Virus record (IMG/VR): IMGVR_UViG_3300032312_001225
Span: 1,187 to 65,186 of that record
DNA: 64,000 nt
From: a virus
Taxonomy: Duplodnaviria; Caudoviricetes
Strand: one strand, 5' to 3'
Part shown: piece after piece, positions 1,767-50,589 of the stretch
Layout of the letters: each line of letters begins with the position of its first letter
How positions within the stretch are numbered: the stretch's first letter is position 1
Made by a program: the position numbers and the translations under genes
The notes under the pieces: generated by a model
What the model saw: only the letters and a program-made list of their open reading frames with translations
Database searches by the model: none
What the model was told of the DNA's origin: nothing

Positions 1767-2290
1767 GCCACTTGCTTATCTAATCCCAAGTATTGATTCC
1801 ACGACGTCTGTTTGACTGTGAACGGCATCTTCTTCCACTGATTGACAAGACTGTAGTAATCAGGACGATACGGTTTGGTCTTGGGCAACAACAAATGACT
1901 GCCCTTGGCATGATTACAAGTTTTGCAACTGGTAACACAGTTTTCCCATACAGTTTTGCCACCTAGGCTACGAGGCGTCACATGATCAATGGTTAAATCT
2001 TCGTAGTCAAACACATCGTCACAATACTGGCACTTGAATAGATCTCGCATGTAAAGATTATATCTGCTAAATTTAACTGCCTGTTTGTAGTGAAAGTAGT
2101 CTCGGGTCACACAAACACTGGGCACATTCAGGGCCAAGCGTTCGCTGTGTACTATCCAATTGGGATAGGTTTCCAGCACATGAACACGACCCAGATACAT
2201 GAGTTTGATTGCGTGTTGCCAATTGATAACACTTAGGGGTAGCACACTTATTGGTTGGTAATTTTGATTGAGTAACAATGTATCTGACAT
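1763..2290 (-). CDS. HNH endonuclease
   Basis: CQYC...TIDHVTPRSLGGKTVWENCVTSCKTCNHAKG. Confidence 0.9.
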   Translation of the reverse strand: MSDTLLLNQNYQPISVLPLSVINWQHAIKLMYLGRVHVLETYPNWIVHSERLALNVPSVCVTRDYFHYKQAVKFSRYNLYMRDLFKCQYCDDVFDYEDLTIDHVTPRSLGGKTVWENCVTSCKTCNHAKGSHLLLPKTKPYRPDYYSLVNQWKKMPFTVKQTSWNQYLGLDKQVA

Positions 2291-2303
2291 TAAATATACT
2301 TAT

Positions 2304-3866
2304 ATGAGTAAAGAGTTAGAGACTGCAATTATCAAGGCACCGTACAAACGGATGTCTTATACTGAGCAACAGATCTTAGAGTTAGCCCGCTGTGCTGATC
2401 CTGTAACAGGCCCAGATTACTTTATGAAGAACTATTTCTTTATACAGCACCCCACCCGCGGCGCCATACAATATCATCCTTTTGAATATCAAGAACGATT
2501 AATTAATTCTTATCATCATTATAGATTCAGTATCAGCCTAATGCCAAGACAAACGGGCAAATCAACCACTGCCGCCGGATACTTGTTGTGGTATGCTATG
2601 TTTGTGCCAGACACAACCATTCTAGTGGCTGCTCACAAGTACTTGGGTGCCCAAGAGATCATGCAACGTGTTCGTTATGCTTATGAAAACTGTCCGGATC
2701 ATATTAGAGCAGGTGTAACCAGTTACAACAAAGGTAGTTTGGACTTTGAAAACGGTAGTCGCATAGTAAGTCAAACCACAACAGAAAACACCGGACGAGG
2801 TATGAGTATATCATTGTTATATTGTGATGAGTTTGCCTTCGTTCGCCCTACCATTGCCACAGACTTTTGGACTTCCATTACTCCTACACTGGCCACTGGT
2901 GGTAAATGTATTATCACATCAACACCCAACTCAGACGAAGATCAATTTGCACAAATTTGGCGAGGAGCCAACAAGTGCATAGACATCAATGGCAATGAAA
3001 CAGAAGTGGGTGTCAACGGATTTAAAGCATTCCGTAGCAAATGGGAAGAACATCCTGAACGAGATGAAGCCTGGGCTGCAAACATGCGAGCACAGCTGGG
3101 CGAAGAACGTTTCCGTCGTGAGATGGAATGTGAATTTATTATCTTTGATGAAACCCTAATCAATCCCTTACACTTGGCCGAGATGTCGGGCATTGATCCG
3201 TTTGAGCGCCAGGGACAGGTGCGTTGGTATAAAAAGCCTGAACGAGATCACACTTACTTTGTGGCACTTGATCCCAGCCTAGGCACTGGAGGAGATCCAG
3301 CAGCCATGCAAGTGTTTGAAATGCCTGGTCTCAAACAGGTAGCCGAATGGCGCGACAACAAAACTCCTATACAACGTCAAGTGCGTATCTTGCAAGAACT
3401 TTGCCAGTACATATCTGATGCCACTGGATCTCCAAACAATGTTTATTATAGTGTAGAAAATAATACCTTAGGCGAAGCTGCACTGGTGGTAATTGAAGAA
3501 ATTGGAGAAGAAAACATGCGTGGGGTATTCCTAAGTGAATCGGCCCGGGCAGGCAATGTACGCAGATTTCGCAAGGGATTTAATACCACAAACAAATCAA
3601 AATTAACTGCCTGTAGCAAACTCAAAAGTTTGATAGAAACTCGCAGAATGATCATAGCCAGTAAAGCCTTGATTTCAGAATTGAAAACCTTTGTTGCACA
3701 CGGCAATAGTTTTGCAGCCAAGATAGGCGAAACCGATGACTTGGTTATGGCAACGCTGTTGGCTCTACGCATGATGCAAACACTACAAAACTATGATGCC
3801 AATTTGGATGCAGAAATCAAAGACTCCGGCGAATTTATTGAACCTATGCCGTTTATAATGATCTGA
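2304..3866 (+). CDS. terL: terminase large subunit (T4 gp17-like)
   Basis: Walker A MPRQTGKSTT, Walker B LYCDEFAF, TSTP coupling motif, nuclease ALDPS...DDLVMA; start placed at ATG 2304 behind TTAAATA (2290-2296); ORF track start is 2268. Confidence 0.95.
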   Translation: MSKELETAIIKAPYKRMSYTEQQILELARCADPVTGPDYFMKNYFFIQHPTRGAIQYHPFEYQERLINSYHHYRFSISLMPRQTGKSTTAAGYLLWYAMFVPDTTILVAAHKYLGAQEIMQRVRYAYENCPDHIRAGVTSYNKGSLDFENGSRIVSQTTTENTGRGMSISLLYCDEFAFVRPTIATDFWTSITPTLATGGKCIITSTPNSDEDQFAQIWRGANKCIDINGNETEVGVNGFKAFRSKWEEHPERDEAWAANMRAQLGEERFRREMECEFIIFDETLINPLHLAEMSGIDPFERQGQVRWYKKPERDHTYFVALDPSLGTGGDPAAMQVFEMPGLKQVAEWRDNKTPIQRQVRILQELCQYISDATGSPNNVYYSVENNTLGEAALVVIEEIGEENMRGVFLSESARAGNVRRFRKGFNTTNKSKLTACSKLKSLIETRRMIIASKALISELKTFVAHGNSFAAKIGETDDLVMATLLALRMMQTLQNYDANLDAEIKDSGEFIEPMPFIMI

Positions 3867-14642: not shown

Positions 14643-14872
14643 CCATTGATGCAGAAGTTCTAAGCGAGCTATACACAATTATGAAACAATATGTTCCTGC
14701 AAAGGATCGTCAAGAGTGTGCTGATAATCTAATGAGTGTCATGGTAGATATGTTAGGAGACCAAGAACTCAAGGAGTTTGGCACAACAGACAGTACCCTA
14801 AAAAAAGCCCTCAAAGAATACACCGCCGATGACGAGCTTGAGGAAGATGACGGAGAAGATTCCGACTGGTAA
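14639..14872 (+). CDS. small acidic hypothetical protein
   Basis: 77-aa ORF coupled to both neighbours. Confidence 0.6.
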   Translation: MTIDAEVLSELYTIMKQYVPAKDRQECADNLMSVMVDMLGDQELKEFGTTDSTLKKALKEYTADDELEEDDGEDSDW

Positions 14873-16119
14873 TGCAACACAAGTATTTTCCAATACAGAC
14901 AGCGACTGCATGCCAACTCAAATGGACTTGGAGCAGTATCTATTTGTACGAAGGAACAACCAACAGTTGCCATAGAGTAGAAAAAAGTCCGTTATCAACC
15001 GGCTCGTTTGATCTTTTCCATAATACTGCTAAAAAATTACAGGATCGGCAAACCATGTTAGCAGGTGCATGGCCCACAGGTGGTTGCGACTACTGTGAAA
15101 AAATAGAACGTGCAGGTGGTAGTAGTGATCGTATGCTACACCTGGCAATACCAGATCTAACACCGCCCGAACTTGAAGTAGACCCCGAAGCTATCCTGGT
15201 AACTCCCAGAATTGTAGAAGTGTATTTTGACAATACCTGTAATCTACGATGTATATATTGCCATGATGGGTTTAGCAGTCGCATCAAACATGAAAATGAT
15301 CAACACGGCAGATTTGAATTGGGTGGTGTTGTAATTGACAATCAATATCGGCCGCATACAGACAAGGCCCTGCTGACCGAGCAGTTATGGTCCTGGCTAG
15401 ACGCCAATTATTTGACTGTACGCAGATTTCATGTGTTGGGTGGAGAACCATTTTATCAAGCACAATTTGACACTTGCTTGGATTTCCTGTATAATCATAG
15501 TAACAAAGATTTGGAATTTAATGTAGTAAGCAACTTGATGATTGATAATAAACGATTACAGGATCATGTAGAACGTATCAAACATCTGGTTGCCGAACGC
15601 AAGATCAAACGTTTTGAAGTGACTGCCAGTATAGATTGTTGGGGTCCAGAACAAGAGTATATTAGATCGGGCTTGGATTTAGAAAAATGGAAAAAGAATT
15701 TTGAATATTTGGTCAATCAACGCTGGATAACTTTGAACATAAACCAAGTGGTCACCGCACTAGCTGTGCCTACCATGCCAGCATTGATCAATTACATAAA
15801 CACATTTAGACCACAAAGAGAAATAGGGCATCATTTGATAACCGCAAACACACCCACTTACATGAATCCAGACATATTTGATGCTGACCTCTTAGATCCG
15901 CACTTTGCTCGAGTGTTAGCGGTCATGCCTGCAGACACTTGGCAACAACAAGAAGCACGTAAGTACATGCAAGGTGTTAGACAACAAATTGCCGCCACTA
16001 AAAAAAATCCTATAGAAATCAACAAATTGCGTACTTATCTTGACGAGATTGATCGTAGACGAAATACCAATTGGCGTGAAACTTTTCCTTGGTTAACCGG
16101 AGTACTTGATGTTTTATAA
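14872..16119 (+). CDS. radical SAM protein
   Basis: CQLKW...SCHR...CDYC; CNLRCIYC; VLGGEP. Confidence 0.88.
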   Translation: MQHKYFPIQTATACQLKWTWSSIYLYEGTTNSCHRVEKSPLSTGSFDLFHNTAKKLQDRQTMLAGAWPTGGCDYCEKIERAGGSSDRMLHLAIPDLTPPELEVDPEAILVTPRIVEVYFDNTCNLRCIYCHDGFSSRIKHENDQHGRFELGGVVIDNQYRPHTDKALLTEQLWSWLDANYLTVRRFHVLGGEPFYQAQFDTCLDFLYNHSNKDLEFNVVSNLMIDNKRLQDHVERIKHLVAERKIKRFEVTASIDCWGPEQEYIRSGLDLEKWKKNFEYLVNQRWITLNINQVVTALAVPTMPALINYINTFRPQREIGHHLITANTPTYMNPDIFDADLLDPHFARVLAVMPADTWQQQEARKYMQGVRQQIAATKKNPIEINKLRTYLDEIDRRRNTNWRETFPWLTGVLDVL

Positions 16120-20058: not shown

Positions 20059-20087
20059 TTGACCTTTAATCACAATTAGTATATAAT
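20059..20087 (+). promoter_or_regulatory. sigma70-like promoter
   Basis: TTGACC-17-TATAAT directly before tRNA-Ile2. Confidence 0.75.
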
Positions 20088-22764: not shown

Positions 22765-23679
22765 ATGAAAAAACTATTAGCAGTTGTATTAGCAACACTT
22801 TCTCTGTCAGTGTCGGCACAAAAAGAAACAATCACCATGTACTACTCATGGACCGCCGCAGACACAGCCGCAAACTTTTATCGCACCTTAGCAGATGAAA
22901 GTAACAAACTTCAAAACAAATACAATTTTATCTTTGATGCCAAACCTGGTGCAGGTGGCACAGTTGCGGCTGCAGCAACATTAAACAATCCCAACTCAAT
23001 CTGGATCAATAGTTCGGCGGCGTTTATCCGCCCTAACCTGTTCCCAAACGAAAGTCACGACATGAGTCAGTTTAGAAGTCTAATGCCCATGTGTGTTGCT
23101 CCGTTTGTGGTTACAAGCACAAAGTATAAATCTTGGAAAGATGTTCCTCAAGATGCCAAGTTAAGCATTGGTATCAGTGGATTGGGTGCAACCACTCACT
23201 TGGTAGCATTGCAAGTGGCCACGCAGTATCCAAACATGCAGATTGTGCCGTTCAAGAGTACCAGCGAAGCATTGTTGTCTACGCTATCCGGTAACACCGA
23301 TTTTGCTGTGGGTTTTATTGGTGATAGTGAACAGTACACCAAACCCGATGCCTCCAAGCGTGTGTACCAATTGGGCATGACTGGCAAACAAAGCATCAAA
23401 GGCATTCCGTTGTTAAAAGATCAGGGTTTTCCAGCAGTGATATCAGACATGAGCACACCGCAACAGATCTTTATCCCACGCAAATTCCCAGAAGAAAAGT
23501 TCCTGGAAATTCGCAAGATTTTTGTAGAAGCTGCACGTAGCAAAAGTGTACGTGATGCCAATGCCGCAGATAACTGTGTGCCCAACAATCAGATTCCCAC
23601 AGCTGAGCTAGACAACTGGTACAACAGTCAGCTGGTGCTATGGCGCCGTTTGAGTGCCACAGTTAAACTGGACAAATAA
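22765..23679 (+). CDS. Bug/TctC-type tripartite tricarboxylate transporter substrate-binding protein
   Basis: Signal peptide MKKLLAVVLATLSLSVSA; KPGAGG; SGLGATTHL; VPFKS...LSGNTD. Confidence 0.8.
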   Translation: MKKLLAVVLATLSLSVSAQKETITMYYSWTAADTAANFYRTLADESNKLQNKYNFIFDAKPGAGGTVAAAATLNNPNSIWINSSAAFIRPNLFPNESHDMSQFRSLMPMCVAPFVVTSTKYKSWKDVPQDAKLSIGISGLGATTHLVALQVATQYPNMQIVPFKSTSEALLSTLSGNTDFAVGFIGDSEQYTKPDASKRVYQLGMTGKQSIKGIPLLKDQGFPAVISDMSTPQQIFIPRKFPEEKFLEIRKIFVEAARSKSVRDANAADNCVPNNQIPTAELDNWYNSQLVLWRRLSATVKLDK

Positions 23680-23803
23680 AAAAAAAAGCTAAATAATTAA
23701 AGCAACGCCGACATTCAGTTGACGTCAGACGCCTAGGGTAACTACCCTTTTACCGGTGTGTTACACTGGAACGCCGCCAAAAAAAATTATAAAGGAAATA
23801 CAC

Positions 23804-24289
23804 ATGAAAACTACTAAAATCCGTTGGGTAATCGCACACGAGCCACTGAGCCTATTTGTACGTGCAGCAGAAGACTTCCAACGCTTTGTAAACGAAGCTC
23901 AAAGTGCAGAAAAGATCGAAGTTGAAGTTATGACACTGAGCGAGTACAGCATGAAGTACAATGACGGCGTCATGGTTACCAAACACGATCTACTAGACCT
24001 AATGGAACAGGGCAAGATTGAAATGAGCCAAATGTACACCACATGGTTGGCTGAAGATATCGAGCACGATATGTTGGCCCTAGAAATGCCATTTATTTTT
24101 GAAGATCACGACCATGCAACTCGTGTGTTAGAGGGTGAAGTTGGCGAGTATCTACTAGACAAGATTACAGAAAAATCCAATGTTCGCGGTATGGCATTTA
24201 CATACTCAGGCGGTTTCCGTAATGTTATTGCTAACAAAAAGGTAAGTACTCTAAAAGATCTAGCTGGTAAAGATGAAGATCAGAACTAA
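23804..24289 (+). CDS. DctP-like TRAP solute-binding protein, N-terminal half (no signal peptide)
   Basis: LALEMPFIFEDHDHA, YSGGFRNV...TLKDLAG, then out of frame with the C-half; AAGGA RBS before 23804. Confidence 0.75.
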   Translation: MKTTKIRWVIAHEPLSLFVRAAEDFQRFVNEAQSAEKIEVEVMTLSEYSMKYNDGVMVTKHDLLDLMEQGKIEMSQMYTTWLAEDIEHDMLALEMPFIFEDHDHATRVLEGEVGEYLLDKITEKSNVRGMAFTYSGGFRNVIANKKVSTLKDLAGKDEDQN

Positions 24290-24761
24290 TCGTAATCCTG
24301 TGGCCCAGGACACGTTTCGGGCAATAGGGATTGAAGATCCCTTTGTTTGCGAAATAGAAGATCTTGGAAAACATATAGAAGCAGGTGACTGTGAAGGCGG
24401 AGAAGGTATATACAGTCGTATCTATCCTTTGGGTCAAGACCGAGTCACCAAATCAGTTTTAAATACTGAGCATAGCTTGTTCCTGACCACCATGATCATG
24501 CGTGACGACTTCTGGCAAACATTAAGTCCAGAAGTTCGTGCAGTGATCAAAGAAGCAGCAATCCGAGCTGGTCGCAAGGAACGATTGACAACAATCGAAG
24601 ATGGACTTGACGCTAGAGCCAAACTGATTGCCGACGGAATTGAAGTTCATGAACTAAGTGACGAAGAACGTGCTGAGTTTAAATCAAAAACCCGGGTAGT
24701 ATATGACAAGCATGAGCCAACATTTACACCCGGTCTAATTGATCGAATCAAAAAGGCATAG
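24273..24761 (+). CDS. DctP-like protein, C-terminal half, copy 1
   Basis: MKIRTNRNPVAQ...HSLFLTTMIMRDDFWQTLSPEVRAVIKEAA; starts exactly at the DctP 'KIR' hinge motif. Confidence 0.75.
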   Translation: MKIRTNRNPVAQDTFRAIGIEDPFVCEIEDLGKHIEAGDCEGGEGIYSRIYPLGQDRVTKSVLNTEHSLFLTTMIMRDDFWQTLSPEVRAVIKEAAIRAGRKERLTTIEDGLDARAKLIADGIEVHELSDEERAEFKSKTRVVYDKHEPTFTPGLIDRIKKA

Positions 24762-24762
24762 A

Positions 24763-25248
24763 ATGAAGATCAGAACCAATCGTAATCCTGTGGCACAAGA
24801 AACAATGCGAGTGTTGGGTGCTGATATATTTGTTTGCGAAACAGAAGACACTCGTGCCCATATCATTGATGGCGACTGTGATGGCGGAGAAACTGTTTAC
24901 AGTCGTATCTATCCATTAGGACAAAATGACGTAAGCAAAACAGTATTAGACACCAAACACAGTTTATTTTTAACCACCATGATCATGCGTGATGACTTCT
25001 GGAAGACATTGAGTCCAGAAGTTCAAGCTGTGATCAAGGATTCTGCTATCAAGGCAGGACGTAGAGAACGTGAAGTAACTATACAAGATGGTGAGGATGC
25101 CAAACAGCAATTGGTTGCTGATGGTATTGATGTTATTGAACTTTCCAAAGAAGAAACAGCCGAGTGGAAGGAAAAAGCTCAAGCAGTTTATGAAAAGTTT
25201 GAACCAACATTCTCACCTGGCTTGATTGATAAAATTAAAAAGGCTTAA
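24763..25248 (+). CDS. DctP-like protein, C-terminal half, copy 2
   Basis: MKIRTNRNPVAQ...HSLFLTTMIMRDDFWKTLSPEVQAVIKDSA; diverged tandem copy of 24273-24761. Confidence 0.75.
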   Translation: MKIRTNRNPVAQETMRVLGADIFVCETEDTRAHIIDGDCDGGETVYSRIYPLGQNDVSKTVLDTKHSLFLTTMIMRDDFWKTLSPEVQAVIKDSAIKAGRREREVTIQDGEDAKQQLVADGIDVIELSKEETAEWKEKAQAVYEKFEPTFSPGLIDKIKKA

Positions 25249-25551: not shown

Positions 25552-25581
25552 TTGACAATAAAGATAAATAATTGTATAATA
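25552..25581 (+). promoter_or_regulatory. sigma70-like promoter
   Basis: TTGACA-18-TATAAT. Confidence 0.75.
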
Positions 25582-25590
25582 TGAAAACTA

Positions 25591-25641
25591 TGAAACATTG
25601 CCTCTATTCAATTTATTCAACACTGGTGCTGTGTGTGCTAG
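25591..25641 (+). CDS. putative leader peptide MKHCLYSIYSHWCCVC
   Basis: Manual translation; begins ~9 nt after the -10 box; 4 Cys, 2 His, 2 Tyr, 1 Trp in 16 aa; upstream of alternative hairpins. Confidence 0.5.
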
Positions 25642-25715
25642 GCCGTTGGATTGACCGTAATTTAGAGCACATGAAGGGTTTTGGATAGAATTATACATAT
25701 TACCGTATTTTAATC

Positions 25716-25748
25716 AAAACCCTGGAACTAAACACTCCGGGGTTTTTT
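25716..25748 (+). terminator. intrinsic terminator (attenuator candidate)
   Basis: AAAACCCTGGA-ACTAAACAC-TCCGGGGTTTT plus T-run; the 5' arm can instead pair with AGGGTTTTG at 25675-25683. Confidence 0.75.
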
Positions 25749-25767
25749 GTTTATAAAGGAGAAGCAA

Positions 25768-25935
25768 ATGGAACGTAAAAGTAAAAAAGAGTTTTCGCAT
25801 TTTGTCCTCTCACACGAAGATAAAGCGGCGTTGATAGAAGCAAAGGTAGCAAGAGTAGAAGCACAAGCTAAGGCGTTGGCAGAACTTGCGAAAGCAAAGA
25901 ATTCTGCAAGGGGGTCGAAATACCCCACACGCTGA
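25768..25935 (+). CDS. small Lys/Ala-rich hypothetical protein
   Basis: AAGGAG RBS before the ATG at 25768; MERKSKKEF...AKALAELAKAK. Confidence 0.5.
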   Translation: MERKSKKEFSHFVLSHEDKAALIEAKVARVEAQAKALAELAKAKNSARGSKYPTR

Positions 25936-26097
25936 CAAATGGATCGAAGTCATGAAGGCAACTGGTACATTTTTTGGGCAGACTATTTACGATAAGCAGT
26001 AAGTATTGACGGGAAACGAGGTCCTGTGCCATACTATAAACAAGCACAAACGGGCGGAACTAGGGATGGAGCACTTCTTGTAGTGTGAAAAATCTAG

Positions 26098-26188
26098 TTA
26101 TAGTAAAGTGCTTTGGAGGAAACACAGCCAATACATACGCAGGTTCTCCTGATAAGAACTGAAACAGTACCAGAGTACTTTACTATAA
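26098..26188 (+). ncRNA. long hairpin enclosing an anticodon-arm-like element
   Basis: 19-bp stem TTATAGTAAAGTGCTTTGG / CCAGAGTACTTTACTATAA (2 G-U pairs) with internal GTTCT-CCTGATA-AGAAC; ends 3 nt before tRNA-Tyr. Confidence 0.45.
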
Positions 26189-26191
26189 AAC

Positions 26192-26275
26192 GGAGAAGAA
26201 GCATCAATGGTGATGCAGTGGACTGTAAATCCGCCGCCTATGGCACGACTGGTTCAATCCCAGTATTCTCCACCA
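26192..26275 (+). tRNA. tRNA-Tyr (GUA)
   Basis: GTGGA-CTGTAAA-TCCGC, long variable arm, A73, CCA. Confidence 0.9.
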
Positions 26276-26277
26276 AT

Positions 26278-26931
26278 TTATAAGTAACCGGGAGTGTCCA
26301 GGTTATAGTTTTTTAAATATTCTTTGCAATCTTGATATGTGCTATCAAACAACAAAATCTGTAGTATGTATCTATGTTGATTGGTCAAATTAATAATGCA
26401 ATGATCAATTCTGGTGTTAAACAACAATGGATAATACAAACGATACTCAGTTACCTCAACCTGATAATTAAGCCTGCATTCGGTGGGAAATCTGTGCAAT
26501 GTTTTTGAATTTGGCGTATCAGTAAGTAAAAAATTAATACAGCTTTTGTGTCCAGCCAGGTCCTGATGCCAATCATACAATGACCAGGGCGGGTTGTATA
26601 AGTAACGAGTTTTAATTTTACCAAGACTTTTTTGTAAATCGCTGGCAAATTTTGTGTTAATAAAACTACTTGATTGAATACATTGTATGGTTCTGGATGT
26701 AAGTGTATGTCTTTGTCCGTTTATCGGAATACCGTGTTGAACACAGTTGGGAGTTGGTGTTGGTGTTCCGTGATCTTTTAAATTTCCCATGCTGTCTTGA
26801 CTTGTAATGGGGTGACCCGGCGGATAATCAACACTGGGCCAAGAATAAACAGCATTTTGTGCTTCATTGATAAAATATTGATCAATTGGCGGCAAATGAT
26901 TCAAATGAAAATGTGTTTCTGATAGACTCAT
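26278..26931 (-). CDS. putative 2OG-Fe(II) dioxygenase/cupin-fold protein
   Basis: YDWHQD...DHCIIN...RYILQI (HxD...H); paralogue of 26935-27438. Confidence 0.5.
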   Translation of the reverse strand: MSLSETHFHLNHLPPIDQYFINEAQNAVYSWPSVDYPPGHPITSQDSMGNLKDHGTPTPTPNCVQHGIPINGQRHTLTSRTIQCIQSSSFINTKFASDLQKSLGKIKTRYLYNPPWSLYDWHQDLAGHKSCINFLLTDTPNSKTLHRFPTECRLNYQVEVTEYRLYYPLLFNTRIDHCIINLTNQHRYILQILLFDSTYQDCKEYLKNYNLDTPGYL

Positions 26932-26934
26932 AAA

Positions 26935-27438
26935 TTAATATTTCTCAATGTTGATAGATTTTAAAAATGCAAGTACGTCAGCATAAGAATGACCGTCTAA
27001 GATTGAAACAGAAAGTATTATACGTTCTTCCGAGTGATTATTAATTACACAATGTTCTTGAGTGGTGTCTAATAGGGTTGGGCAAGACGCATGGTATACT
27101 ACTTCTTCTAAATCCCATAAAAATTTATCATGGTTGTTGCTACGATAAAAAGTTTTTGCACCAGGATTGGTCTTAATTATCCAATTCAATGAGCAGTTTC
27201 TTATTTTATCTGTATGCCAATCGTAAAAACTATTAGGCGAATTTTTAAGATATTTAGCACCAATGGTACCAAATTGATGTTTGAGTAATTTAGAAAATTC
27301 AGTTTCATGAAAAAGTGCAGCTCGTTTAGCATGAGCATACGGGCTTTCTGTGTATTCAAATCCGTTGGCCAATCCATCTGCGATAATTTCTGTTGGTAAA
27401 GTTGGTAAATTTATTAATTGATAAAACTTATTTGACAT
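26935..27438 (-). CDS. putative 2OG-Fe(II) dioxygenase/cupin-fold protein
   Basis: YDWHTD...EHCVIN..ERIILSVS; likely start 27438 (ORF track 27462). Confidence 0.5.
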   Translation of the reverse strand: MSNKFYQLINLPTLPTEIIADGLANGFEYTESPYAHAKRAALFHETEFSKLLKHQFGTIGAKYLKNSPNSFYDWHTDKIRNCSLNWIIKTNPGAKTFYRSNNHDKFLWDLEEVVYHASCPTLLDTTQEHCVINNHSEERIILSVSILDGHSYADVLAFLKSINIEKY

Positions 27439-27463
27439 AACAGTACTTATTGAAATTTGCAAG

Positions 27464-27492
27464 TTGACAATAAAAAATGTTTAATGTATAAT
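27464..27492 (+). promoter_or_regulatory. sigma70-like promoter for the tRNA array
   Basis: TTGACA-17-TATAAT. Confidence 0.8.
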
Positions 27493-27507: not shown

Positions 27508-27584
27508 GGTCTGGTAGTTCAATTGGTTAGAGTACCTGCCTGTCACGCAGGACGTTGCGGGTTCGAGTCCCGTCCAGACCGCCA
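27508..27584 (+). tRNA. tRNA-Asp (GUC)
   Basis: CCTGC-CTGTCAC-GCAGG, G73, CCA. Confidence 0.93.
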
Positions 27585-27590
27585 AATTAG

Positions 27591-27666
27591 GCTCCCGTCG
27601 TCTAGAGGCCTAGGACATCGCCCTTTCACGGCGAGTACACCGGTTCGAATCCGGTCGGGAGCGCCA
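27591..27666 (+). tRNA. tRNA-Glu (UUC)
   Basis: TCGCC-CTTTCAC-GGCGA, G73, CCA. Confidence 0.93.
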
Positions 27667-27673
27667 AGATTAT

Positions 27674-27747
27674 GGGTTGCTAGTTTAGTGGCAGAACAGC
27701 GGTCTCCAAAACCGCGGGTAGAGGTTCGATTCCTTTGCGACCCGCCA
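27674..27747 (+). tRNA. tRNA-Trp (CCA)
   Basis: GCGGT-CTCCAAA-ACCGC, G73, CCA. Confidence 0.92.
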
Positions 27748-27762
27748 AGCAGTAAATCCTCA

Positions 27763-27836
27763 GCGGGATTAGTTAAATGGTATAACAGCAGATTTCCAAT
27801 CTTCGGTCAAGGGTTCGATTCCCTTATCCCGCTCCA
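27763..27836 (+). tRNA. tRNA-Gly (UCC)
   Basis: GCGGGAT/ATCCCGC acceptor, loop TTTCCAA, U73, CCA. Confidence 0.9.
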
Positions 27837-27842
27837 AACAAC

Positions 27843-27920
27843 GCAACGGTGGCAGAGAGGCCCAATGCAAGGGATTGCAAATCCCTAAAACCGTCAGTTC
27901 GAATCTGACCCGTTGTTCCA
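27843..27920 (+). tRNA. tRNA-Cys (GCA)
   Basis: AGGGA-TTGCAAA-TCCCT, U73, CCA. Confidence 0.9.
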
Positions 27921-32182: not shown

Positions 32183-33478
32183 ATGTTAAAAAACACATTC
32201 TGTTCAAGCCCGTGGTTTCATATTAGATTAACTTACGATGGTAGTTATGATGTGTGTCGCTGGAGTAAAAACGGAGTCACTGATTTTAACATACGTACAA
32301 CATCATTGATGCAGTTTTACAACAGTGAACCTATGCGAGACTTGCGAGAACAACTGTTGGCAGGCAACAGGCCACAGGCTTGTGAGCCCTGTTATTATCA
32401 AGACAGTTTTGGTAAACTATCAGGACGTGTTAGACAACTTAACAAAAGTGCTATCACAATGCAGGAGTTTCCGTTAACTTTTCGCTCAAGCCCTCACTTG
32501 CCTGTGTTTGAATACAGCAACGATAACAAGGGTGCATCGAGTCATTTTCCTACAGACTTACAAATAGACCTAGGCAACACTTGTAATAGTGCTTGCATCA
32601 TGTGTGACCCTACTGCAAGCAGTCGACTGGTAGCAGACTATAAAAAACTAAACAAGTTAGATAACAAGTTATTTGCAGAACCTCAATTGTATCGATCTTG
32701 GACAGAAGATCAGCAGGTAGTTGATCGTTTTGTTGCAGAGCTGCAATCATTCCCATACATACGTTACATACACTTCTTGGGAGGTGAAACCTTATACAAT
32801 CAAGCCTTTTACGACATCTGCGAGAACTTAGATGGTCAAGACCTTATAGTTGGTACAACTACCAACGGCACCATATACGACGAACGCATTGAACAGTTGA
32901 TACCTAGATTCAAAGAGTTTCACTTGGGTATCAGCATAGAGTCAGTTACTGGTTTAAATGACTATGTACGTTACCCAGGCCCTACCGATCAGATTTTGAC
33001 AAACATTCTCAAATTTGTTTCCTTGCGTGATCGTAATCCCAGCCTCAAACTAGAACTCAGAATAACTCCTAACTTGTTTACTATCAGTGAATTGGATCAA
33101 GTGTTTGAGTTCATGATCCGGCATGACATCATTGCAGAGAGTTGTAACATCTTACACCAACCCAGAAGCCTACGCATGGAGCTCATGCCAGAAGATATTA
33201 GACAAGAGACTATTAGCAAGTTACAGGCCGTAGTTGATCGCTTGGGCAAGTACACTCCGCAAGTTAATACTCGTAGATCAGATTTAAGTCAGCAGATCAT
33301 TGCACAATTAGCAAATGAGTATTTGGAGTTTGTTAAAACATATACTCGACCTGCTGACGCTGAAGAATCACTAACAGAATTAGTCACGTTTTTAAAAAGT
33401 TTTGAATCAATCAGGAATAACACAATACTAGATTATGCACCAAGATATACAGACTTTCTCAGACATATTGGATATTGA
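32183..33478 (+). CDS. radical SAM protein
   Basis: FCSSPW...VCRW...CEPC; CNSACIMC; FLGGE. Confidence 0.88.
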   Translation: MLKNTFCSSPWFHIRLTYDGSYDVCRWSKNGVTDFNIRTTSLMQFYNSEPMRDLREQLLAGNRPQACEPCYYQDSFGKLSGRVRQLNKSAITMQEFPLTFRSSPHLPVFEYSNDNKGASSHFPTDLQIDLGNTCNSACIMCDPTASSRLVADYKKLNKLDNKLFAEPQLYRSWTEDQQVVDRFVAELQSFPYIRYIHFLGGETLYNQAFYDICENLDGQDLIVGTTTNGTIYDERIEQLIPRFKEFHLGISIESVTGLNDYVRYPGPTDQILTNILKFVSLRDRNPSLKLELRITPNLFTISELDQVFEFMIRHDIIAESCNILHQPRSLRMELMPEDIRQETISKLQAVVDRLGKYTPQVNTRRSDLSQQIIAQLANEYLEFVKTYTRPADAEESLTELVTFLKSFESIRNNTILDYAPRYTDFLRHIGY

Positions 33479-41806: not shown

Positions 41807-41825
41807 TATTTATTATGCTTAAATA
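41807..41825. promoter_or_regulatory. divergent late-type promoter pair
   Basis: ATAAATA on the minus strand (41807-41813) and TTAAATA on the plus strand (41819-41825) between divergent glycosyltransferase genes. Confidence 0.5.

Positions 41826-48966: not shown

Positions 48967-50589
<1,623 letters not shown>

Follow-up and report, generated by a model that had tools for sequence, protein, structure and literature searches.

How a virus might control the expression of its own tRNA genes is the question raised by a compact cassette in which a consensus promoter, a short leader open reading frame (ORF) and an intrinsic terminator precede a tRNA region. The cassette lies in a 64,000-nucleotide stretch of DNA (the window) that is part of a 65-kb IMG/VR virus record. 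Comparison with related loci makes it probable that the cassette is a ribosome-mediated transcription attenuator heading a phage unit of a small ORF and tRNA genes, with read-through when translation lags. An attenuator layout had been proposed from the window itself (hereafter the original prediction), and its promoter, leader ORF, antiterminator and terminator, and downstream RNA and tRNA genes all find comparative support, but the regulatory run of codons that it included is absent. Likewise, the proposal that the cassette senses charged tRNA or translation is supported by the comparative evidence, although its stated basis, a run of Cys and Trp codons, was wrong and arose from a slip of the reading frame. 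The features of the cassette and of the adjacent genes are as follows:

25552-25580, + strand: sigma-70 consensus promoter (TTGACA at 25552-25557, 17-nt spacer, TATAAT at 25575-25580; 12/12 consensus match)
25564-25570, + strand: ATAAATA motif, similar to a T4-type late promoter, within the promoter spacer; shared by 63 of 70 cassette promoters
25590-25688, + strand: leader ORF of 32 codons plus a TAG stop, as translated in the true frame; no Shine-Dalgarno sequence; ATG about 3 nt from the predicted 5' end
25647-25649, + strand: single mid-peptide Trp codon, invariant in the family; 3' foot of the most stable intra-ORF hairpin
25675-25691, + strand: antiterminator 5' arm in predicted folds, holding the leader stop codon (25686-25688)
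25707-25723, + strand: antiterminator 3' arm, overlapping the terminator 5' arm at 25716-25723
25716-25748, + strand: intrinsic terminator (11-bp stem formed by 25716-25726 with 25736-25746, 9-nt loop, T run to 25748)
25756-25935, + strand: Shine-Dalgarno sequence AAGGAG (25756-25761) and 55-codon ORF (25768-25935), the first gene behind the terminator
26006-26190, + strand: structured region devoid of any credible ORF, with a weak promoter-like site (9/12) ahead of it; no Rfam family
26192-26272, + strand: tRNA-Tyr (GTA), Rfam tRNA score 35.4 bits; first tRNA of the downstream unit

Distribution, promoter and leader reading frame

The proteins flanking the cassette (98-aa and 55-aa ORFs), when used as queries, led to no related viral loci. 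The terminator itself was more productive: a 31-mer was found in one viral contig, a 19-mer in 9 viral and 37 metagenome contigs, and a stem-only pattern with a free loop in 42 viral contigs. Three matches to the 19-mer in cellular genome bins were set aside as chance occurrences, being located inside coding regions and unaccompanied by a cassette. As a control for bias, an alignment of the 57-aa ORF found 3' of the terminator was used as a query independent of both leader and terminator; the cassette was present in 43 of the 44 loci obtained in this way, several of them with quite different terminators. Altogether 70 distinct cassettes were collected, all in uncultured, mostly freshwater, large phages, and many come from lake-metagenome contigs 220-357 kb in length. 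Among cultured-phage records, the search in near mode matched only the tRNA-Tyr gene, which is 90% identical to that of Limnohabitans phage DC31 and constitutes the only link to a cultured phage; the cassette was absent from these records, in distant mode as well. At one locus, L092 (IMGVR_UViG_3300017917_002248, approximately 1400-1520), the 57-aa ORF comes immediately after the cassette promoter, with neither leader ORF nor terminator between them; this natural 'deletion' variant, the sole locus of its kind, could be used as a control.

The sigma-70-like promoter of the original prediction was borne out as a perfect match to consensus. Within the 18 kb scanned there are only 3 such 12/12 sites (25552, 27464 and 35647), and the other two, together with an 11/12 site at 20059, are each directly 5' of tRNA genes: the promoters at 20059, 27464 and 35647 precede tRNA-Met, a tRNA Asp-Glu-Trp-Gly-Cys cluster and tRNA-Thr, respectively, by 8-15 nt. 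Thus, these tRNAs would be transcribed almost without a 5' leader and not from behind an attenuator. A promoter of the form GGTTGACA...TATAAT is common to all 70 related cassettes, and in the window its transcript is predicted to start at about 25587. The ATAAATA motif of the spacer is absent from the other consensus promoters of the window. Elsewhere in the window it was noted at 644, 3866, 18309, 34110 and 59311 on the + strand and at 41807 on the - strand, often just 5' of ORF starts, and its total count (13, with 16 expected) is not above chance. A late promoter nested at this motif would yield a longer 5' end without a Shine-Dalgarno sequence, perhaps giving an untranslated, read-through form of the transcript.

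The leader ORF is not the one described originally. A 16-codon ORF at 25591-25641 ending in HWCCVC does not exist in the sequence: one base had been skipped near 25620, and the ATG is at 25590 rather than 25591. The run of Cys and Trp codons at the end of the peptide was an artefact of this slip, the true frame having no terminal run of either, and the stop codon, formerly placed 35 nt before the antiterminator arm, is actually inside it. An in-frame ATG at 25581, from which the ORF would have 35 codons, adjoins the -10 box and cannot belong to a transcript initiated from the promoter at 25552-25580.

An ORF occupies the same position in 70 of 70 cassettes, in agreement with the expectation that a short ORF would be conserved across relatives; the biased codon run that was also expected was not seen, the leader of the window having one Trp codon and no repeats and the peptides of the family being diverse instead of skewed towards one residue. 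The length of the ORF varies from 32 to 49 codons, and its stop falls 8-22 nt into the antiterminator arm in every cassette. In shuffled sequence the chance of such an open frame is 0.05-0.23 per family, with a product of approximately 1e-9 over the nine peptide families. Of the codon differences in family A, 35-39% are synonymous in frame and 10-21% out of frame; in family D, to which the window belongs, the values are 24% and 11-16%, respectively, so that synonymous differences are two- to threefold more frequent in the leader frame than in the other two. These comparisons indicate that the leader ORF is under selection.

The start of the ORF is unusual in that the ATG lacks a Shine-Dalgarno sequence in all 70 cassettes and follows the -10 box at a distance of 7 nt (23 cassettes), 8 nt (21), 10 nt (14), 11 nt (11) or 12 nt (1). 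As the ATG is located at the expected start of transcription or a few bases after it, with no room for a Shine-Dalgarno sequence, the transcript would be an mRNA of the leaderless type. The spacing of 10-12 nt in 26 of the 70 cassettes, the window's included, implies an untranslated 5' end of 3-5 nt, from which initiation without a Shine-Dalgarno sequence may be poor; this counts against the model.

Peptides can barely be aligned between families, and their C-terminal residues are dictated by the sequence of the hairpin. Some members of family A have a 1-nt insertion or deletion that shifts the frame a few codons before the end, and the stop remains in the same motif, with TGA replacing TAG. 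Stops in two frames, TGA and TAG, are found in a TGAATAG-like motif within the distal part of the antiterminator 5' arm (its distal half, 25683-25691 in the window), and thus frameshifted leaders still end at the same place. From this pattern, the conserved feature appears to be a ribosome start at the 5' end combined with a stop inside the hairpin arm, and not the C-terminal sequence. Strong conservation inside families extends to parts of the peptide and even to synonymous sites, which points to added constraints (from RNA structure, for instance, or from a nascent peptide that is itself active) beyond those required by a simple model of this kind.

The terminator and antiterminator helices

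The intrinsic terminator that had been proposed is evident in the sequence as an 11-bp stem and a T run. It was missed by the terminator scanner, which has a loop limit of 8 and so does not accept the 9-nt loop, and the stem was read from the sequence. Within the family, terminator stems vary by compensatory changes, and the loop hardly differs between members. As originally noted, the 9-mer at 25675-25683 is perfectly complementary to 25715-25723, and the pairing extends to approximately 17 bp in the centroid fold. This complementarity, the loss of which in homologues would have spoken against a switch, is preserved: an antiterminator folds in 70 of 70 cassettes and in each of them takes 3-8 nt of the terminator 5' arm. 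The mean folding energies over the 70 cassettes are -17.0 kcal/mol for the antiterminator and -10.8 kcal/mol for the terminator.

Covariation of the antiterminator and terminator stems, which the original prediction had suggested looking for by alignment, was found. Antiterminator arms paired with their cognate partners have a folding energy of -18.5 kcal/mol, versus -12.0 kcal/mol with arms swapped in from other peptide families, and when arms were permuted at the level of families only the true assignment was that good (1/720). A plain MAFFT alignment has 72.5% of its cells paired in the named structure, a value reached by 0 of 500 shuffles, and a covariation score that 2 of 500 shuffles attain and that is higher than in any slid control. 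In loci L084, L095, L097 and L099, which have variant terminators, the antiterminator 5' arm is altered to match. The switch helices are, by these comparative measures, under selection. An additional 8-bp helix of the original prediction (25632-25639 with 25666-25673) exists as a complementarity of 6 Watson-Crick and 2 G-U pairs, but it is absent both from the predicted folds and from the conserved switch.

A helix that clearly sequesters the antiterminator had been sought in the window without success, and it is absent from the family as well: pairing of the upstream ORF region with the arm, as in an anti-antiterminator (1:2) helix, is no better than that of shuffled upstream sequence (family-level p = 0.41). 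A helix of 25603-25611 with 25681-25689, present in the minimum-energy fold of the window, was considered as a sequestering element and rejected, not being conserved. Of the paired bases of the arm, 99% are within the footprint of a ribosome that has the stop codon in its A site. Considering this footprint and the lack of a conserved sequestering helix, the ribosome would be the only plausible agent to block the antiterminator, and because there is no anti-antiterminator, a leader that is untranslated or slowly translated should be read through rather than terminated. RNAalifold applied to 23 family A leaders yielded only one covarying pair inside the ORF region, and thus a conserved aptamer-like domain is unsupported.

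Genes behind the terminator

The terminator is followed either by a small ORF led by a Shine-Dalgarno sequence or directly by tRNA genes. Small ORFs homologous to the 55-codon ORF of the window follow the terminator in related loci, and these small ORFs have no match in Pfam or PHROG. Two unrelated families of small ORFs, of 51-58 residues, alternate behind the terminators of loci L014-L125, approximately 40-55 nt after each; both families look helical. A given leader family is not strictly tied to one downstream ORF family, a pattern suggestive of modules being exchanged at the terminator.

A same-strand tRNA gene is present 3' of the cassette, within approximately 0.13-1.8 kb, in 64 of the 65 loci that have enough sequence, and 49 of these 64 have no strong promoter-like site between cassette and tRNA. 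The first downstream tRNA of the 64 loci is variously Met (13 loci), Trp (9), Cys (9), Tyr (8), Ser (6) or another. In the window it is Tyr, as had been recognized; this gene was missed by ARAGORN and has a mismatch at the foot of its acceptor stem. The original prediction was also right in placing the Trp and Cys tRNAs further on behind a promoter of their own, for they belong to the cluster at 27508-27920 served by the 12/12 promoter at 27464.

In the closest relatives (L041, L046 and L063), the cassette is followed by the 55-codon ORF and then by tRNA Asp-Glu-Trp-Gly-Cys. The window and L035 have extra sequence between the 55-codon ORF and this cluster, consisting in the window of the structured RNA at 26006-26190, tRNA-Tyr, two minus-strand genes (26278-27462) and the consensus promoter at 27464. 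On account of this extra sequence and of the cluster's own promoter, the switch of the window would govern only the ORF at 25768-25935, the structured RNA and tRNA-Tyr. An element homologous to the structured RNA is found directly behind the attenuator terminator in L038. The weak promoter-like site at 26006 could drive tRNA-Tyr independently; this site, the shortness of the unit in the window and the separate promoter of the main tRNA cluster weigh against the attenuator model.

Proposed mechanism and alternative explanations

From the arrangement of these elements we infer a start of transcription, initiation of the leaderless, 70S type, translation of the leader, a direction of the switch and a physiological signal. 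Host RNA polymerase would start at the consensus promoter and produce a transcript beginning at the AUG or within a few bases of it, so that a ribosome, needing no Shine-Dalgarno sequence, could enter at the 5' end and read the 32-codon leader up to the stop inside the antiterminator 5' arm. The antiterminator 3' arm would double as the terminator 5' arm. A ribosome that keeps up and has arrived at the end of the ORF would cover the first arm, allowing the terminator to form and an RNA of approximately 160 nt to be released at 25748. If, instead, no ribosome is present, or the ribosome lags or has stalled (a Trp, Cys or His codon, or the lack of any charged tRNA, might be the cause), the first hairpin to form would be the antiterminator, and transcription would continue into the 55-codon ORF, the structured RNA and tRNA-Tyr, and in relatives into whole tRNA arrays. 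A pause of the polymerase at the most stable hairpin inside the ORF may bring it into step with the ribosome.

The composition of the leader peptides bears on what such a switch might sense. The 68 distinct peptides, with a mean length of 35 residues and in nine families, contain on average 17.9 distinct amino acids, compared with 16.0 expected from composition and 15.6 in windows of real proteins of this phage; all nine family means are above expectation (t = 6.9, p = 1e-4, family-level test). Among the peptides of at least 40 residues, 11 of 12 hold all 20 amino acids, for which the expectation is 0.5-2%. Rare residues account for the excess of diversity: of the 68 peptides, 100% contain Trp (40% expected), 97% contain Cys (39% expected) and 88% contain His (56% expected), and the residues often missing from versions of 32-34 residues are Phe, Tyr and Ala. 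The peptide of the window is unremarkable by itself, with 17 of 20 amino acids (Ala, Pro and Gln are lacking) and only one Trp codon. The initial impression of a peptide rich in Cys, His and Trp is thereby partly echoed in the true composition of the family, but by coincidence, the peptide then described being unreal.

An invariant Trp codon invites a narrower explanation, in which the single UGG senses charged tRNA-Trp and turns on arrays that carry a phage tRNA-Trp. Apart from the initiator Met, no residue but Trp is invariant at a set position in the middle of the peptide (codon 17-23) in every family, and in every case its codon precedes the antiterminator arm by 22 nt or more, so that a ribosome stalled there would leave the arm free; moreover, tRNA-Trp is present in most of the arrays, and it comes first in the 9 loci mentioned above. 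However, known attenuators use runs of the cognate codon and here there is one, Cys and His are also enriched and the long versions are complete in amino acids, and the first tRNA is more often Met, with Cys and Tyr about as frequent as Trp. The UGG may also be constrained as RNA, since it is at the foot of a conserved hairpin, occupying the 3' foot of the most stable intra-ORF hairpin in 8 of 9 families. A Trp-specific attenuator is therefore considered unlikely.

Slightly less likely again is a stand-alone micro-gene or small RNA gene with a leaky terminator, of which the product would be the peptide or the RNA of approximately 160 nt and in which the hairpin would serve stability. A strong promoter separated by approximately 160 nt from a terminator is how small RNA genes are usually built, and the peptide families are well conserved internally. 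The terminated RNA of one attenuator, rnTrpL, reportedly acts in trans. However, between families the peptides share little beyond composition, and their C-terminal residues follow the hairpin sequence and change frame. The covarying hairpin always overlaps the terminator arm, as a stabilising hairpin need not, and the cassette is always 5' of same-strand genes that mostly lack a promoter themselves.

A sensor based on an arrest peptide, as in TnaC or SecM, in which a nascent peptide with the invariant Trp would stall the ribosome under the influence of a small molecule or of the state of the cell, could account for the fixed distance of this Trp from the N-terminus, for N-terminal halves that are strongly conserved within families, and for the frequent Q-P before the Trp and acidic residues after it. 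It is improbable, considering that no motif apart from the Trp is common to all families, that the distance from Trp to stop varies from 11 to 25 residues, that the terminal Pro-stop of TnaC is missing, that the terminator is intrinsic whereas the TnaC type is Rho-dependent, and that raised amino-acid diversity would not be expected. Least probable is a leader RNA that binds a ligand, tRNA or protein (riboswitch, T-box-like or TRAP/PyrR-like) and in which the ORF is secondary, for although the ORF region is structured, a long-range helix with one covarying pair encloses a hairpin in family A and the terminator loop hardly varies, covariation inside the ORF region is weak, the region 5' of the antiterminator cannot be aligned between families and yet the ORF is always kept, and Rfam gave only tRNAs at gathering score and, at E values up to 10, only weak terminator-driven matches and no T-box.

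Ribosome-mediated attenuation, the preferred explanation of the cassette, is textbook knowledge from the trpL, hisL, leuL, thrL and pheL leaders of E. coli, in which a promoter-proximal mini-ORF is followed by mutually exclusive antiterminator and terminator hairpins and the position of the ribosome decides between them. The phage cassette resembles these leaders in having a mini-ORF, mutually exclusive hairpins and an intrinsic terminator before the putatively regulated genes. Unlike them, it has neither a run of cognate codons nor a conserved 1:2 helix, its stop codon is inside the antiterminator arm, its initiation would be of the leaderless type, and its targets are tRNAs and a small ORF instead of biosynthetic enzymes. 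Lacking the 1:2 helix, an untranslated phage leader should be read through instead of super-attenuating as in the trpL type; the two designs can thus be distinguished by loss of the start codon, which should raise read-through in the phage cassette and not lower it.

Other known systems share single aspects with the cassette. The cI mRNA of phage lambda transcribed from PRM is a leaderless phage mRNA, translated from a 5'-terminal AUG without a Shine-Dalgarno sequence, as the phage leader would be; however, cI is an ordinary protein gene, and the ORF here is a regulatory leader coupled to a terminator. T-boxes likewise are leaders that report the state of tRNA through a choice between antiterminator and terminator, but they are untranslated and bind uncharged tRNA directly, and the cassette matches none of those in Rfam. 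T4-type promoter/stem-loop shuffling cassettes may also be related, and they are not known to contain a leader ORF.

The closest parallel in logic is the short, amino-acid-diverse upstream ORF (uORF) of whiB7 (wblC) in mycobacteria and other actinobacteria, efficient translation of which allows a Rho-independent terminator to form (PMC10274678). Experiments support the converse as well: slow translation, caused by antibiotics, amino-acid shortage or knock-down of tRNAs or synthetases, leads to the antiterminator and to read-through (PMC10274678). The phage cassette would work by the same logic with a similarly broad uORF, as its high average amino-acid diversity illustrates, but there is no relation in sequence: whiB7 is cellular and its uORF controls the gene of a transcription factor, whereas the phage cassette heads tRNA genes; the whiB7 uORF is enriched in alanine, whereas the phage leaders are enriched in Trp, Cys and His; and the phage ORF begins at the 5' end of its transcript. 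No WhiB7/WblC regulator gene is present downstream, where the 55-codon ORF without a family match and phage tRNA genes are found.

In comparison with these precedents, the new elements of the cassette would be its viral setting, its leaderless start, its two-helix design, a diverse leader in which one Trp never varies, and its tRNA gene targets. Nothing in the full-text literature searched describes an attenuator that precedes tRNA genes in a phage, or a leaderless attenuator of this type. In its minimal two-helix form, the ribosome alone would replace the anti-antiterminator, and a compact reporter of approximately 200 bp could be made from it.

Why tRNA genes are carried by phages, and when they are put to use, is an old open question. 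Tentatively, large freshwater phages are suggested to gate their tRNA arrays by means of a leaderless mini-gene that is rich in the rarest amino acids, and in its long versions contains all twenty, and that acts as a general sensor of the speed of translation, such that the phage's own tRNAs are made only when host decoding falls short, for example through codon mismatch, host shut-off or tRNA-cleaving defence systems. Phage tRNAs would then be deployed on demand, in feedback on decoding capacity that is coupled to the speed of the ribosome. The late-type promoter nested in the spacer, if it is active, may bypass the switch by way of its longer, untranslated 5' end.

Several other genes of the window were noted. 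Three adjacent genes at 23756-25248 match halves of DctP, a TRAP solute-binding protein (the N-terminal half at 23756-24289, the C-terminal half at both 24273-24761 and 24739-25248), and a TctC-like gene is located at 22765-23679. The window also encodes a GroEL-like chaperonin (48970-50589), two radical-SAM proteins (14872-16119 and 32183-33478) and a large terminase (2268-3866), genes that fit a large phage with many auxiliary functions.
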